NCBI GenBank assembly: GCA_000802045.1
Contig: JUEF01000030.1
Location: 11,767-75,766, forward strand
DNA from: Peptococcaceae bacterium BICA1-8
Lineage (GTDB): Bacteria > Bacillota > Peptococcia > Peptococcales > BICA1-8
DNA length: 64,000 nucleotides
Reading direction: 5' to 3'
This document shows positions 6,157 to 45,049 of the stretch, piece by piece. Below the pieces are notes generated by a model. The model saw only the letters and a program-made list of their open reading frames with translations. It was not told the origin of the DNA and made no database searches. The translations under genes were made by a program, and so were the position numbers. Each line of letters opens with the position of its first letter. The stretch's first letter is position 1.

Positions 6157-6617
6157 TTTGCATAACTCTCAATATTAATATTTTCTTTTAAAGAGGAAAG
6201 AGCAATTATTGTATTTGATTTAAGTACACCTTTAATTTTCTTTAGAATATTTGATAAAAAATTTTCCAGGGATTTGGTATCTTCTACAAGTATTTTTAAT
6301 AAATAATCATATTCACCGACAACATGGTGGCACTCTAATACAGAATTACATTGAACAATAGATTTTCTAAAATCTTCTATATTCTCTGTTTTATCAATAT
6401 TGACAAAAACAAAGGCCAAAAGCTTGTAGTTGATTTTCTCTCTATTAATTTTTATTGTGTATTTTTCAATTATCTTTGCTTCCTCCATTTTTCTTATTCT
6501 TTCTGCTACCGCAGGAATGGAGAGGCTTACTTTTTTGCTTATTTCCGAAGTAGTTGCCCTGCTATTTTCTTTCAAGACATTAATAATTTTCAAATCAATT
6601 GTGTCCATAATAATCAC
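6153..6617 (-). CDS. Lrp/AsnC family transcriptional regulator
   Basis: LDxxDxKIL-type start (IDLKIINVLKENSRATTSEISKKVSLSIPAVAERIRKME), an HTH_AsnC plus RAM domain layout. Confidence 0.9.
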   Translation of the reverse strand: MIIMDTIDLKIINVLKENSRATTSEISKKVSLSIPAVAERIRKMEEAKIIEKYTIKINREKINYKLLAFVFVNIDKTENIEDFRKSIVQCNSVLECHHVVGEYDYLLKILVEDTKSLENFLSNILKKIKGVLKSNTIIALSSLKENINIESYAK

Positions 6618-7025
6618 CTCGTTTCTTAAATTAATGCTATTCTACACATTAGTTTAAATAAAGTAAATCTTTTCTTAAAATACATTAATATCTTAGGAAA
6701 TTCATGTTTTTACTTTCAATATTTAAACTTCATAGCATAAAATTTAGCATTAAACTTAAAAAACAGAAAGTGGCATTATATATTAGATATATCATATATA
6801 AAACCATAAGAAACTCTCAGAGGCAGACTCAGGTTGGGGTTGATGAGATAACAACCAACCAACTCTTCTAGACACAAGCCAAAATATAAAGGTAGTCTTA
6901 TCATTAGAACCATACAGTAAATGTGCTGTCTCAACCGTTCGTATAGAACTACTACAAATACACTTTGGCCAATGGCACCAAAGTAGCCCAAGTGCTACTT
7001 TTTTTTCGTAGTCTGCCGACTTTAA

Positions 7026-7245
7026 GATAACGTCCAAGCACTCACGACGCCGAGAGCCTTTGCTAGCTTACCCGGTATTGGAATAGGCTGTGGAAAGATT
7101 ACCGTACACCAGCTGGTCTGGCATTTTTTGGCCATGACTACTACGGCTTTCGCTTCCGGCATAATGTCCGCAGGATTGAAACCCGGCGGTGCTCAAGTAA
7201 AACGCTCCAAGGAAGCCACGCCCACTAGATCAGCCTGAAATTCTT
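7026..7245 (-). pseudogene. N-terminal fragment of an Fe-S oxidoreductase-like gene with an in-frame stop
   Basis: Frame reads FQADLVGVASLERFT*APPGFNPADIMPEAKAVVVMAKK. The ADLVG(V/I)A..ERF..AP.G..P.D..P.AK.V(V/I)V pattern is typical of N-termini in the epoxyqueuosine-reductase/reductive-dehalogenase-like Fe-S family. TGA at 7193-7195. No start codon. Confidence 0.4.
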
Positions 7246-7262
7246 TCTATCATGGATAATGT

Positions 7263-7952
7263 TCATAATCTTAAACACAAGGTTTTACTCTCACACTTTA
7301 TTTTTTTAACAAATTTCAAGTTAGATAATTCTATCGAACCTTCTAATTTGTTTTCACTAAATGGCCTAATTACAAAGCAGATTTCTCTAAACCCATTACT
7401 AGAATTAAATAAGTCTTTTAGCTTACAAAAAAAGATTGTTTCTGTAGGAGCTACAGGGATATTAATTTTATTTTCTAAATTTCCAAACTTCGCTTCAAGT
7501 ACAAAAGTTTTAATGTCTGTTGATTTACATTTAAAGCTCAAGTAGTATCCCTTATCATAATACTCTTCTAAATCATCGATACCTGTAATTACATAACTTA
7601 CCCAATTGTCTGAATTATCAGTGATATGATGATACTTTAATGCCAGTATGTTATTATTTGCGTATGCTTCAATTGTTCCTGGCAACTCATAACTAGTATA
7701 AATACCTCTTTTTTTGCCTAACCCATTTTCTATGTTAACTAACTTAGCTAATTCTAACGAAGTAAATTGAAAATCATCAAGTTCTCTTTCTTTTAAATTT
7801 TTAAATATTTCTCTTATACCACTTAAACTATTTAATATTTTTTTCTGAAATCTTTTAGAAAAAAAGAATACTACAGCCAGAATCATACTTAGAATCCCTA
7901 TCATATTAAGAAAAATACTACTTATATCACTAAATGATTTTAAAAAATGCAT
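7263..7952 (-). CDS. orphan membrane-anchored protein (N-terminal TM plus beta-rich domain)
   Basis: 229-aa AT-rich ORF with RBS AGGGGG upstream. No recognisable family. Confidence 0.5.
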   Translation of the reverse strand: MHFLKSFSDISSIFLNMIGILSMILAVVFFFSKRFQKKILNSLSGIREIFKNLKERELDDFQFTSLELAKLVNIENGLGKKRGIYTSYELPGTIEAYANNNILALKYHHITDNSDNWVSYVITGIDDLEEYYDKGYYLSFKCKSTDIKTFVLEAKFGNLENKINIPVAPTETIFFCKLKDLFNSSNGFREICFVIRPFSENKLEGSIELSNLKFVKKIKCESKTLCLRL

Positions 7953-7999
7953 TTTCTTTTCCCCCTATTTGTTATTAATTTTATTTATGACCCATAAGG

Positions 8000-8215
8000 A
8001 ATACCCTAGACGACTATTTCACATAACGATTGTGTTTTGCCGACGTCCTTGAGCCTTCAGGTGACCGCTCATGCCGGGGACCCTTTGGGTAAGCTAACAC
8101 GGGCACCGACTCGGTTGGTGAAAGGATGTGGCGCGCATGCCCCAAATCCCAGCTCAACGCGCCTTTACGGCAAAACTGGGTTATCGGATGGATGAGGCCG
8201 CAGCAAGAGCCGCAT
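8000..8215. other. GC-rich ORF-free structured segment (right-hand half of the split element)
   Basis: 9-bp long-range inverted repeat GTTTTGCCG (8034-8042) / CGGCAAAAC (8168-8176). Local hairpin GCCGC-ATGGAC-GCGGC. No credible reading frame. Confidence 0.4.
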
Positions 8216-8230
8216 GGACGCGGCGACCTT
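8216..8230. repeat. 15-bp direct repeat, copy 1 (GGACGCGGCGACCTT)
   Basis: 14/15 identical to 9030-9044. The two copies bracket the AT-rich two-ORF block. Confidence 0.8.
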
Positions 8231-8239
8231 TAATAGCAT

Positions 8240-8779
8240 TTATAAATCCAGTGTATTAAAAAATGCCTGTAGTTCCTCATTGCTTTTTTCATGCTTTATT
8301 CTATACTCATTAAATTCTTGTATAGGTAGGACAATCTTATATTTTTCTTGCTTAAAAATATTATTATTTCTTGTCGACACTATGAGCTTAAATTCAAAAT
8401 CGTTGATCCAATTAATTGTATTAAGATAATCCTCACGATTCGCACCTGATACTTCAAGATATATAATTAAAATCTTATTCACAGTTTTTTTTGGTTCCAA
8501 GACTATAGGGTATTTAACTTGCGTTTTGTGTTTCATAAATTCTAAAGGTGTAAAAATCTCTTCTTCAGACACAAAGTATTCCGTGAATTTGACATTAACC
8601 TTACTTAATAAAAATTCATCTTTAATTTTACTGAATTTTACTAATTCAACAATAATGTCTTCAATAATCCCAACATTATTACCAAAGTTATTAATAAACA
8701 AATTATAATTTACCATTAAATCAATATAGTTTTCTCCACAATCCTTAGCTTTAAAATGATATTGACGCAACGGAGACAC
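8240..8779 (-). CDS. orphan soluble protein
   Basis: 179-aa AT-rich ORF immediately downstream of the 66-aa membrane ORF. No recognisable motif. Confidence 0.45.
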   Translation of the reverse strand: MSPLRQYHFKAKDCGENYIDLMVNYNLFINNFGNNVGIIEDIIVELVKFSKIKDEFLLSKVNVKFTEYFVSEEEIFTPLEFMKHKTQVKYPIVLEPKKTVNKILIIYLEVSGANREDYLNTINWINDFEFKLIVSTRNNNIFKQEKYKIVLPIQEFNEYRIKHEKSNEELQAFFNTLDL

Positions 8780-8787
8780 ACTGACAT

Positions 8788-8988
8788 TTATTTCTGAGAA
8801 TTTTCAAGATATATTCTATAATTTGCAACAATAAATCCTATTAATAGAATTGCAGTAAATAAATATGATGGCAACTCAATATTTCCATAATATGTTATTA
8901 GCATTCCAATGACATCTAACCCTAGACATATAAGCAAAACACTATTTTTAATAATAAGTGACAAATAGGTAACTAATTTATTCATCAA
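8788..8988 (-). CDS. small two-TM membrane protein
   Basis: 66-aa ORF with two hydrophobic helices and RBS AAAGGAG upstream. Confidence 0.45.
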   Translation of the reverse strand: MMNKLVTYLSLIIKNSVLLICLGLDVIGMLITYYGNIELPSYLFTAILLIGFIVANYRIYLENSQK

Positions 8989-9029
8989 AAACTCCTTTTC
9001 TGTACTTTATTTAATAAACAGCCGTTACA

Positions 9030-9044
9030 GGACGCGGCGGCCTT
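9030..9044. repeat. 15-bp direct repeat, copy 2 (GGACGCGGCGGCCTT)
   Basis: See 8216-8230. Confidence 0.8.
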
Positions 9045-9890
9045 GCCTCATCTTTCCGAGTCATGGTAGACGCATCGGTTACCCGACGCACCGGGCTCCT
9101 CGAGAATACTCCCTTCCGTAATCGGCTATCATTAATAGCCTCTTGGTATTTTTCGCAGTGAGGTTGGCACCATTTATCCAGCCCTGCATGTCCGGTAGGT
9201 GTTTCCTTTGCAAATTGCGTATTCCCGTTAATCCCTTCCCCATGTAGCCGGCTCTCTCGACCTCATAGTAATATGGATTAATCCGACTTCCTATAGGTCT
9301 TCGGTCAGCCTCTTTGTCGATTGCACATTCCTACCAATAATATTTATATAACTGGAACCTATAGGATCTCCCAAGTTCCGGATACTTCTCTCCATACATG
9401 CCACGTTCTAGGACCCCGACAGACCCTCCAAAATCTCACCAATAGCGATTTTTTTGTATTACTTCCGTGACATTAAACACGTCGTCATCTGCATTTTCCT
9501 CTGTTTCCAGAGTCCACGGTTAACGGGGCTCAATTGTGCTTCAGGGATTACGGTCTCCCTTATGGCCTATATGGTTCTCTAGGTAAAGAATCTAAGCGAT
9601 TCACACAAAAACTAAAAAAAGGTTTTTGGTTCTCTGCTTATGTGTACATTCACCTAGCAGTTACCAGTTTCGGCGCAACACTCGATATGGGTGGCTGGTT
9701 AGGCCTTGCCCAACAGGGACTTTCACCCTGCAAGAAGTACCAAACTTCGCTTGGCGTACTAACGTTCCCGGCATTCCCGACGCTCACCAACCTTAACGCC
9801 TTACCCAATAGGGTGAGTGTGGTCCGGCATGCTACTTGATTAAACTATACCGGACCCGTAAGTGGGAATGGACGTGTTAGCCGGGGTAGC
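9045..9890 (-). ncRNA. GC-rich ORF-free structured segment, family unassigned (degenerate group-II-intron-like or other large ncRNA, or decayed DNA)
   Basis: About 0.85 kb with no credible ORF in six frames and many local hairpins. On the minus strand, GAGCCCGGU-GCGUCGG-GUAA-CCGAUGC (9058-9098) resembles a domain-5-like GNRA hairpin with an AGC base. GGGUGAAAGUCCC lies near 9717-9729. Confidence 0.3.
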
Positions 9891-17034: not shown

Positions 17035-17075
17035 GTCACCAGTCACTAGTGACTAGTCACTAGTCACTAGTCACT
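17035..17075. repeat. ACTAGT-containing heptamer tandem array (CACTAGT/GACTAGT)
   Basis: gtcaccagtcactagtgactagtcactagtcactagtcact, preceded by accatagaccatagactatt (17011-17030). Confidence 0.85.
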
Positions 17076-17158
17076 TATTTACCCACTTCTCTTCATTCAC
17101 CTTTCCTCAAAATTATGCATATTCTATAGTGATAATTTTGAGGAAGGGTGATTTTTTT

Positions 17159-17853: not shown

Positions 17854-18354
17854 ATGAACACAAGGAAATTAACCTTTTCCGCCTTACTTATTGCTCTTGG
17901 TACTTTACTTGGCCATGTTATCTACATACCGGTAGGAGTAGCTAAATGCTTTCCGATTCAACACACTATTAATGTTTTATCAGCGGTCCTATTAGGCCCT
18001 GGTTACGCCCTTTCAAATGCCTTTTTAATTTCCCTTCTTAGAAATATTTTAGGGACAGGCTCGCCGCTAGCCTTTCCGGGAAGTATGCTAGGTGCTATTT
18101 TAGCAGCTTACCTTTTCCAAAGAACAAAAAAGTATTCCTATACAGTAGCGGGAGAAATATTTGGCACAGGTGTTTTAGGGGGATTGGCCTCCTACCCCAT
18201 TGCAAAGTATGTTTTAGGAAAGGAAATAGCCGTAATGTTTTTTGTAATACCCTTTTTAATTAGTACAATCGGCGGCAGCTTAATTGGCTTGGCAATTCTT
18301 AAGCTCTTAGAACGAAATGCATGGTTAGAAAAACAGGGCTTCCTAAGGAGATAA
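17854..18354 (+). CDS. thiW: energy-coupling-factor S component ThiW (thiazole precursor uptake)
   Basis: MNTRKLTFSALLIALGTLLGHVIYIPVGVAKCFPIQHTINVLSAVLLGP is ThiW-like. RBS AAGGAG lies 8 nt upstream. The longer listed ORF start is an upstream extension. Confidence 0.7.
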   Translation: MNTRKLTFSALLIALGTLLGHVIYIPVGVAKCFPIQHTINVLSAVLLGPGYALSNAFLISLLRNILGTGSPLAFPGSMLGAILAAYLFQRTKKYSYTVAGEIFGTGVLGGLASYPIAKYVLGKEIAVMFFVIPFLISTIGGSLIGLAILKLLERNAWLEKQGFLRR

Positions 18355-19406: not shown

Positions 19407-19440
19407 ACCACTAGTCACCAGTCACTAGTCACTAGCCACT
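19407..19440. repeat. ACTAGT-containing heptamer array
   Basis: accactagtcaccagtcactagtcactagccact. Confidence 0.8.
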
Positions 19441-19443
19441 TTT

Positions 19444-20035: not shown

Positions 20036-20062
20036 AAAAAGCCAGCCCGCGGGCTGGCTTTT
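20036..20062 (-). terminator. rho-independent terminator of the trpP-like gene (bidirectional shape)
   Basis: aaaaaGCCAGCCCgcGGGCTGGCtttt directly after the stop at 20067. Confidence 0.7.
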
Positions 20063-20066
20063 GAAA

Positions 20067-20600
20067 TTACTTAGTTATTTCCTGGGGTCTTCCCCTCTCT
20101 ATCACCTGTTTACTAAAGGTAACAAGAGGATAAAGTACTACTACCCCTATAGTATTTGCAATTGTTGCAGGTAAGACAACTGTTGCATAAAGGATTTCAA
20201 AGGGTGCGGGAATGCCTACTAAGGCTAAAGCTGAAAGCAAGAATACAGCTCCACTAAACAAGGTACCTAAAGCACCGATAATTCCTGCAGTTACAAGAAC
20301 AGGCACTCTACTTTTTGCAAGAATTTTAATCAGCATATATACAAACAAACTTGTTAAAGGTTTATCAATTAGGTTAGGAATTTGCCCCGCAGGAAAAGTT
20401 GTAGTTAGAGCACAGATAATTCCCGCTACACTACCTGCCAAAAGGGTTGATCTCAAATCCTTTTTTAATAGGATAATCACAAACAACATTGCTAAAAGTA
20501 AATCCGGCTTCATTCCAGCTCCATAACCAGGAGTAATTAAACGCAAAATAAAACCAATCGCCAGTAATAAACTGATTTGGGCCATTTCTCTAATATTCAT
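20067..20600 (-). CDS. trpP: TrpP-like tryptophan transporter (ECF-S-like membrane protein)
   Basis: 177 aa. GMKPDLLLAMLF and FPAGQIPNLIDKP segments as I recall them from B. subtilis TrpP/YhaG. Supported by the (G/U)AG triplet array in its leader. Confidence 0.65.
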   Translation of the reverse strand: MNIREMAQISLLLAIGFILRLITPGYGAGMKPDLLLAMLFVIILLKKDLRSTLLAGSVAGIICALTTTFPAGQIPNLIDKPLTSLFVYMLIKILAKSRVPVLVTAGIIGALGTLFSGAVFLLSALALVGIPAPFEILYATVVLPATIANTIGVVVLYPLVTFSKQVIERGRPQEITK

Positions 20601-20610
20601 TTTAACTTTT

Positions 20611-20714
20611 CTCCTCTCATCTCTTCTAGACTCAACTTACTAAACTAGCTAATTTACATATCAAACTTCTCATCTAACTTACTATTCTCATCTCAACTCA
20701 ACTTTTCTCGTCTA
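20611..20714 (-). promoter_or_regulatory. (G/U)AG triplet-repeat array: candidate TRAP (MtrB) binding site overlapping the SD
   Basis: The leader RNA has 16 GAG/UAG triplets. One run is GAG-uc-UAG-aa-GAG-au-GAG-ag-GAG, ending inside the AGGAG SD 10 nt before the ATG. Another is GAG-uu-GAG-au-GAG-aa-UAG. Confidence 0.55.
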
Positions 20715-20734
20715 GCATCACTCCTGTTTATTTT

Positions 20735-20767
20735 AGTTACTTGTGACTAGTTACTAGTGACTGGTGG
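20735..20767. repeat. ACTAGT-containing heptamer array
   Basis: agttacttgtgactagttactagtgactggtg, with related cagtgtccagtgaccag at 20808-20824. Confidence 0.75.
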
Positions 20768-20892
20768 GTTATTGAGGGTAAAATCTTAGGGTATCGTGCC
20801 CAGTTCTCAGTGTCCAGTGACCAGAAATAAATAACTTATTTAATAATATAACTCTAAATGGTTGTTTTTGCAATACATAATTTATAACAATC

Positions 20893-31355: not shown

Positions 31356-31377
31356 GGCTAGTGGCTAGTCACTAGTC
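31356..31377. repeat. ACTAGT-containing heptamer array inside an operon spacer
   Basis: ggctagtggctagtcactagtc, between the RidA gene and the PLP-enzyme gene. Confidence 0.75.
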
Positions 31378-44980: not shown

Positions 44981-45025
44981 CACTAGTGACTAGTCACTAG
45001 TCACTAGTCACTAGTCACTAGTAAC
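44981..45025. repeat. ACTAGT-containing heptamer array (longest copy)
   Basis: cactagtgactagtcactagtcactagtcactagtcactagtaac. Confidence 0.9.
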
Positions 45026-45049
45026 AAATACAGAGGTGTTGAAATAATT

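Follow-up and report, generated by a model that had tools for sequence, protein, structure and literature searches.

TRAP is a textbook case of an RNA-binding regulator, yet to our knowledge it has been studied almost only in Bacillus and its close relatives, with one ring-sized site on each target. In Bacillus subtilis, TRAP directly blocks the ribosome-binding sites of trpP, trpG, and ycbK, as stated in passages of the published sources (PMC10327191; PMC4347634, citing Sarsero 2000, Yakhnin 2004), and passages of two further papers describe the trpEDCFBA leader as an attenuator with 11 triplets and an antiterminator/terminator pair (PMC4027176, PMC3064811). TRAP control of trpP is thus already known from B. 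subtilis, and its kind is not new. What appears to be new at the locus described here is the lineage, which is of Peptococcaceae type and of another bacterial class than Bacillus, and the site, which is conserved, doubled, and free of a terminator; none such was found among the few TRAP papers covered by our searches, and searches for TRAP in Clostridia or Peptococcaceae and for double TRAP sites returned nothing relevant.

We analysed a 64-kb stretch of DNA from Peptococcaceae bacterium BICA1-8 (the whole of it is called the window below), in which trpP is preceded by two arrays of phased (G/U/A)AG triplets. We consider it probable that translation of this trpP is repressed in a TRAP-type, tryptophan-activated manner by occlusion of the Shine-Dalgarno (SD) sequence, a proposal in which we infer TRAP as the binder, the dependence on tryptophan, and the role of the distal array. 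The leader resembles the TRAP site of B. subtilis trpP (yhaG) in that it precedes a gene of the TrpP family, consists of phased triplets with mainly 2-nt spacers, overlaps the SD and initiation region, has no terminator, and is predicted to block ribosome binding at high tryptophan. It differs in having two ring-sized arrays instead of one of about nine triplets, with more AAG and more 1-nt spacers, and in its host, a Peptococcaceae-type MAG and not a Bacillus. The same code of phased GAG/UAG triplets is shared with the trpEDCFBA attenuator of B. subtilis, from which the BICA1-8 leader differs by the absence of an antiterminator/terminator pair between arrays and start codon.

The 177-aa product of the open reading frame is, by family assignment, TrpP, the S component of an ECF-type tryptophan transporter: a match to Pfam PF17099 (E=3.2e-48, residues 3-161) upholds the call made in the initial annotation. 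It is 100% identical to 'hypothetical protein JM58_03240 [Peptococcaceae bacterium BICA1-8]', and the locus was also found in JGI metagenome 3300002838. The features of the locus are as follows.

20036..20058, minus strand: terminator-like hairpin GCCAGCCCG/CGGGCUGGC, then UUUUU, just past the trpP stop codon (read from sequence)
20067..20600, minus strand: trpP (Pfam PF17099)
20606..20651, minus strand: proximal array of 10 triplets, UAG c UAG uu UAG u AAG uu GAG uc UAG aa GAG au GAG ag GAG aa AAG
20611..20615, minus strand: Shine-Dalgarno AGGAG, 10 nt before the ATG (read from sequence; invariant in alignment A2)
20652..20668, minus strand: inter-array gap of 17 nt, A/U-rich (AAGUUUGAUAUGUAAAU)
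20669..20714, minus strand: distal array of 10 triplets, UAG ac GAG aa AAG uu GAG uu GAG au GAG aa UAG u AAG u UAG au GAG
20715..20725, minus strand: conserved block AGGAGUGAUGC, adjoining the distal array on its 5' side and holding GAG 20723-20721
about 20737-20732, minus strand: weak, nearer -10 candidate TAAAAT
20845..20873, minus strand: promoter-like TTGCAA-17-TATATT, one candidate (consensus scan; conserved in the relative L003)

Read in the direction of the mRNA, the 125 nt of the minus strand before the ATG (20600-20598) consist of AGGAGUGAUGC, the distal array, AAGUUUGAUAUGUAAAU, the proximal array, UUAAA, and the AUG. The sixteen (G/U)AG triplets reported in the initial annotation were recovered one by one on the minus (mRNA) strand, and its observation that the last GAG lies inside the AGGAG (20615-20611), 10 nt before the ATG, was confirmed. 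Two further (G/U)AG triplets are present, GAG 20723-20721 and GAG 20616-20614, the latter overlapping its neighbours. Four in-phase AAG triplets (20704-20702, 20680-20678, 20638-20636, 20608-20606) sit in what had been read as long spacers, and with GAG, UAG, and AAG at spacers of 1-3 nt the leader holds two unbroken chains of 10 triplets, 20714-20669 and 20651-20606. Together, the arrays comprise about 20 triplets over 109 nt. The proximal array covers the SD and has its 3' end 5 nt before the ATG. In the block AGGAGUGAUGC, which is possibly the 5' end region of the transcript, GTGATG and the G residues on its flanks vary little or not at all (alignments A2, A4).

The leader is poorly structured. 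Its minimum free energy is -16.9 kcal/mol versus -22 +/- 2.8 for shuffles (z=+1.83), making it less structured than 196 of 200 shuffles, and it has the single-stranded character of TRAP targets in translation-initiation leaders. The terminator scan found no terminator-like hairpin between 20725 and 20600; the hairpin past the trpP stop codon is unlisted in that scan, its loop being shorter than 3 nt. Attenuation of the trp operon type was rejected on the grounds that the leader is unstructured and has no terminator. Because there is neither a terminator nor an antiterminator, control would be translational, as in B. subtilis trpP, trpG, and ycbK. The leader matched no Rfam family, either at gathering score or at E<=1. 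A 5' stem-loop like the 5'SL of the B. subtilis trp leader is unsupported, as the only pairing that RNAalifold predicts, 5 bp between GUCAC and GUGAU, shows no covariation and has an energy close to 0. A leader peptide or uORF (ATG at 20718, MLDEKS*) was also rejected; its AGGAG lies only 2 nt upstream, and its frame and length are unconserved in the relatives.

Under the proposed mechanism, each array, with its about 10 (G/U/A)AG triplets at a 5-nt period, would correspond to roughly the wrap of one 11- or 12-subunit ring. With tryptophan in ample supply, TRAP would be loaded with it and wrap the proximal array (20651-20606). With the wrapped stretch including the SD and reaching to 5 nt before the ATG, binding of the 30S subunit would be blocked and synthesis of the importer would stop. 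The distal array (20714-20669) would most likely take up a further ring on this leader, which is short and unstructured.

Several elements in the surroundings of the gene are recorded here as separate observations. Two GC-rich hairpins on the minus strand, 20984-20966 and 20914-20893, each start with UGUAGGGGC and resemble copies of one short repeated element; a U-run follows the first of them, probably the terminator of a ylbF-like gene, and is lacking after the second. An intergenic heptamer repeat, (CACTAGT)n / (TAGTCAC)n, is dispersed over the window with 3-7 copies per site at 17037-17077, 19409-19442, 20734-20766, 31358-31377, and 44981-45028, giving 22 matches to a 20-mer (<=3 mismatches) versus 0.01 expected. 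Its copy at 20734-20766 falls within the 5' region of trpP, shortly before the distal array, where it could overlap a -35 element, with looser 7-nt phasing on to about 20826 (TGGTCAC TGGACAC TGAGAAC TGGGCAC); similar heptamer repeats are found at the same place in the relatives L003, L006, and L084. A gene for the thiamine-precursor transporter ThiW (17854-18354, plus strand; Pfam E=3.5e-57) is also encoded in the window, and no TPP riboswitch was found upstream of it even at Rfam E<=1; a TPP riboswitch is present near the trpP locus in the relatives L005 and L007. The sole Rfam match in the window is to group II intron domains D1-D4 (RF02005, 83 bits) at 9404-9723 on the minus strand.

The comparison comprised 80 trpP loci from a scan of species-representative genomes. 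The double array recurs in about eight related genomes (L003, L004, L006, L007, L009, L014, L015, and L084/L085, the last being double-array contigs that carry protein P0009), with TrpP identities of 59-92%; the highest value belongs to L003 (BRH_c20a, 92%) and the lowest among L004, L006, L007, L009, L014, and L015 is 59%. In the closest relatives, the distal array extends from about -105 to -60 and the proximal array from about -50 to -4. The letters of the spacers differ among relatives and the gap between the arrays varies from 11 to 26 nt without sequence conservation, while the GAGAGGAG end of the proximal array at the SD is invariant in seven aligned relatives. The array is conserved in orthologous leaders, and its doubling is specific: trpP loci of Bacillaceae have one array, from -30/-40 to -3, as do L034, L042, L048, and L054 from other lineages, and Sporohalobacter salinus, which encodes both MtrB (P0431) and TrpP (P0101), has a single array over the SD of trpP. 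The double layout is confined to the BICA1-8 clade, and Bacillaceae and other lineages as a rule have a single array, in agreement with the earlier remark that two separate clusters would be unusual.

An alternative reading of this architecture is that TRAP acts through the proximal array alone, and that the distal one is a decaying tandem duplicate or lies outside the main transcript and makes no regulatory contribution. Internal repetition speaks for this reading, with a 20-nt period (2.5 copies, 80% matches) detected by TRF within the distal array and UAGUAAGUU common to both arrays, and so does the weaker or shorter distal array in L003, L005, L007, and L008. Moreover, the transcription start of trpP is placed by candidate promoters only, and a single array suffices in Bacillaceae and Sporohalobacter. 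However, 8-10 in-phase distal triplets persist down to 59% TrpP identity (L004, L006, L009, L014, L015, L084) in leaders whose spacers and gap have diverged, and a neutral relic should have lost its phase; the retention of phase across considerable divergence therefore argues against such a relic. L005 and Desulfonispora thiosulfatigenes (L195) each have a good promoter-like -35/-10 pair immediately upstream of the first triplets, so that the triplets are expected to be transcribed there. We regard a proximal-only site as unlikely, a judgement that concerns the architecture only.

In the preferred reading, in which both arrays are occupied, the distal array would serve tighter or sharper repression, either because more TRAP is bound locally or because the rest of the single-stranded standby region is covered as well. 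It is tempting to go one step further and propose that the trpP mRNA of the Peptococcaceae-type clade loads two TRAP rings side by side, with the second ring functional, be it through cooperativity that leads to a steeper tryptophan response or by turning the abundant leader into a TRAP sponge that couples expression of the transporter to the remaining regulon. This extension is offered tentatively, as a possibility that we hold somewhat doubtful. We know of no natural leader with two full tandem TRAP sites and no terminator, and of no description of a natural two-ring TRAP ribonucleoprotein.

The leaders of other trpP orthologues add a further line of evidence. A T-box core motif without an array was present at 34 of the 80 loci, 84-264 nt upstream of trpP, an array of at least six triplets without a T-box at 35, and neither at these thresholds at 11; the two elements thus exclude each other (Fisher p=2.5e-13, a descriptive value only, since phylogenetic independence of the loci is not given). 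Rfam confirmed the T-box in 10 of 12 array-less loci tested, and the specifier was UGG, the tryptophan codon, in the two examined. Together with the Pfam assignment, these T-boxes on orthologues place trpP among the genes for tryptophan synthesis or transport. Upstream of trpP, Rfam detected no T-box in 13 close relatives of BICA1-8 trpP, 10 of which have arrays, and a T-box leader was rejected for BICA1-8 itself, where RF00230 had no match at gathering score or even at E<=1. Since the two elements exclude each other at the same position, the arrays fill the slot that is held by a T-box in other trpP orthologues. T-box leaders of trpP (RF00230) share this regulatory slot with the BICA1-8 leader and, in the two examined, a tryptophan supply signal; they differ in sensing uncharged tRNA and in acting by antitermination through a structured RNA.

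Several of the compared loci have peculiarities of their own. In Desulfonispora thiosulfatigenes (L195, FWWT01000023.1), a cultured relative with conserved ylbF-trpP synteny, one nearly continuous run of about 15 triplets (1897-2003) begins a few nt past a TTGCAA-17-TATATT promoter; this species would be a convenient organism for experimental testing of the TRAP model. L008 has a T-box with a UUC (Phe) specifier at 6644-6907, immediately downstream of trpP and preceding an ABC transporter whose binding protein is of the PF04392 type; one such ABC system stands on either side of its trpP, the arrays of which are reduced (6+5). On L012, the chromosome of a Peptococcia MAG, a 2.6-kb stretch (6544-9144) just downstream of trpP contains four cobalamin riboswitch aptamers. 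Firmicute-type trpP genes in records labelled Betaproteobacteria, Chitinophagales, and Lutibacter (L022, L028, L065), one with a T-box motif and one with a triplet array, likely reflect mis-binning or mislabelling.

The composition of the arrays bears on the identity of the binder. Of the spacers in the double-array clade, 79% have 2 nt, 19% have 1 nt, and 2% have 3 nt, and the triplets divide into 47% GAG, 30% UAG, and 23% AAG; in trpP arrays of Bacillaceae, 90% of the spacers are 2 nt and GAG/UAG/AAG account for 61/30/9%. The share of 1-nt spacers (about a fifth) and that of AAG triplets (about a quarter) speak against a strict TRAP fit, as both kinds of element are suboptimal for B. subtilis TRAP. 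Overall, the arrays appear to fit the TRAP code, with a somewhat larger share of weaker elements than in Bacillaceae.

The gene for TRAP, mtrB, had no match in the window (tblastn with a Geobacillus TRAP query), and tblastn gave nothing credible in 82 fetched loci. The TRAP family comprises 4,559 clusters at 90% identity and 127 at 50%. A TRAP of BICA1-8 or of the double-array MAGs was absent from the 120 clusters listed of the 4,559 in the Geobacillus-seeded search, those listed being from Bacillaceae only, and by organism label none of the 102 proteins listed in a Clostridia-seeded search belonged to BICA1-8 or BRH_c20a. All eight TRAP contigs looked up belong to assemblies other than BICA1-8 and the double-array MAGs. 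Among the matches listed in a metagenome TRAP scan, no contig name matched the BICA1b naming of the JGI record of the BICA1-8 sample, and the contigs of TrpP P0012 and TRAP P0404 had no sample name in common.

TRAP nevertheless occurs outside Bacillaceae, namely in Clostridia MAGs, Acetohalobium, Sporohalobacter, Candidatus Frackibacter, Limnochordales, and Syntrophothermus; the three clusters looked up yielded names for few members, a Clostridia MAG, WOR-3, and Syntrophothermus. Outside Bacillaceae, mtrB usually lies either in the order rapZ-whiA-hpr-dnaE-mtrB-(small ORF)-pfkA-pyk or directly upstream of (aroF)-trpEDCFBA (contexts recorded from L086-L105, L110-L113, L203, L204 and L106-L109), and neither context matches the Bacillus arrangement mtrA(folE)-mtrB. 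On these non-Bacillaceae contigs, the spacer after mtrB contains long arrays. In L106 and L109, the genes called after mtrB are trp-operon genes, and the leader in L149 may, as read by eye, precede a TrpE-like N-terminus. L109 and L149 each have several arrays and a terminator, with the last array over the SD. These trp leaders thus resemble that of BICA1-8 trpP in having more than one array, the last of them over the SD; they differ in that an upstream array precedes a terminator hairpin, a combination of attenuation and SD occlusion, whereas the BICA1-8 arrays are split only by the 17-nt gap. As a side result, several very large proteins (P0307 with 956 aa, P0334 with 2268 aa, P0344-P0347, P0349, P0356, and P0359) contain 2-7 stretches that match the 75-aa TRAP with E from 1e-10 to about 4e-4, which may represent TRAP-like beta-sandwich repeats inside giant proteins.

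Regulation by tryptophan-responsive occlusion of the ribosome-binding site could also be retained with a different binder, either another, non-TRAP RNA-binding protein or a protein with a TRAP fold that is too diverged to be recognised. The window contains no mtrB, none of the matches listed was assigned to the clade, and the higher proportions of AAG and 1-nt spacers compared with Bacillaceae sites would be in line with this explanation. Against it, the period, the triplet identities, and the position match the trpP arrays of Bacillaceae, which contribute most of the MtrB matches listed, and of the MtrB-carrying Sporohalobacter, and TRAP is widespread in Bacillota other than Bacillaceae. Other repeat-binding regulators that we know of do not fit, as HutP recognises UAG at a 7-nt period, CsrA recognises GGA in hairpin loops, and Hfq binds ARN or AG repeats. 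The HutP site of the B. subtilis hut mRNA, which consists of two sets of three UAG triplets and mediates antitermination of histidine-utilisation genes, is comparable in form, with an amino-acid-activated, ring-shaped protein and repeated NAG triplets in two clusters; its 4-nt spacers, period of 7, and 3+3 triplets contrast with a period of 5 and 10+10 triplets in BICA1-8. A HutP-type site was rejected on the array period, which is 5 nt and not 7 (12 of 24 AG-to-AG distances are exactly 5 nt); the heptamer repeat at 20766-20734 does have a period of 7 but is a dispersed genomic repeat. We regard a binder other than a recognisable TRAP as distinctly improbable. The interpretation as a TRAP site given in the initial annotation is partly supported: it stands as far as the form of the arrays, the coverage of the SD, the unstructured RNA, the conservation in orthologues, and the exclusion of T-boxes are concerned, whereas none of the matches listed in the gene searches placed mtrB in BICA1-8 or its close relatives.

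The arrays stand out from their genomic background. The next-best triplet chain on either strand of the window has five members (128 kb counting both strands), which dispels, for these 64 kb, the concern raised in the initial annotation that dense triplet arrays might be common in unrelated leaders of this AT-rich genome. In 20,000 dinucleotide-preserving shuffles of the 125-nt segment, the probability of a best chain of at least 10 was 0.0185 and that of two chains summing to at least 20 was 5e-5. The leader contains only 5 C among its 125 bases, and its raw count of 18 (G/U)AG is not above that of dinucleotide shuffles (16.9 +/- 1.6), so that the signal resides in phasing and composition and not in count. 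Apart from the trpP leaders, the flanks of the 80 related trpP genes (0.92 Mb) contain only two chains of at least eight, and in the TRAP-gene loci (0.54 Mb) such chains lie exclusively just downstream of mtrB. If (G/U)AG alone and spacers of 2-3 nt are admitted, as the strict Bacillus rule demands, the longest unbroken run is 5, or 7 per array if AAG is allowed; the leader thus has the 9-11 triplets with 2-3 nt spacers of a TRAP site in a loose form, and the strict match to B. subtilis is imperfect. That the arrays are non-regulatory, reflecting either a purine-rich, C-poor, unstructured leader that favours efficient translation or low-complexity slippage, is consistent with the unexceptional (G/U)AG count and with the other short dispersed repeats nearby (the heptamer repeats), but it is very improbable given the rarity of comparable chains, a 5-nt phasing that is improbable even given the composition, and the occupation, without overlap between the two, of the T-box position of other trpP orthologues.

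The clean replacement of a T-box by a triplet array upstream of trpP across 80 genomes provides a compact example of regulatory turnover, and which of the two precedes trpP can serve as a cheap predictor of TRAP-encoding genomes. If the second site is functional, the leader would offer a simple natural system for two ring proteins sharing one short RNA, and those who engineer TRAP as an RNA-binding module would gain two paired sites ready for use. On sequence-level evidence, the TRAP-trpP circuit seems to reach into a Peptococcaceae-type, uncultured subsurface lineage, and this lineage keeps a doubled site.
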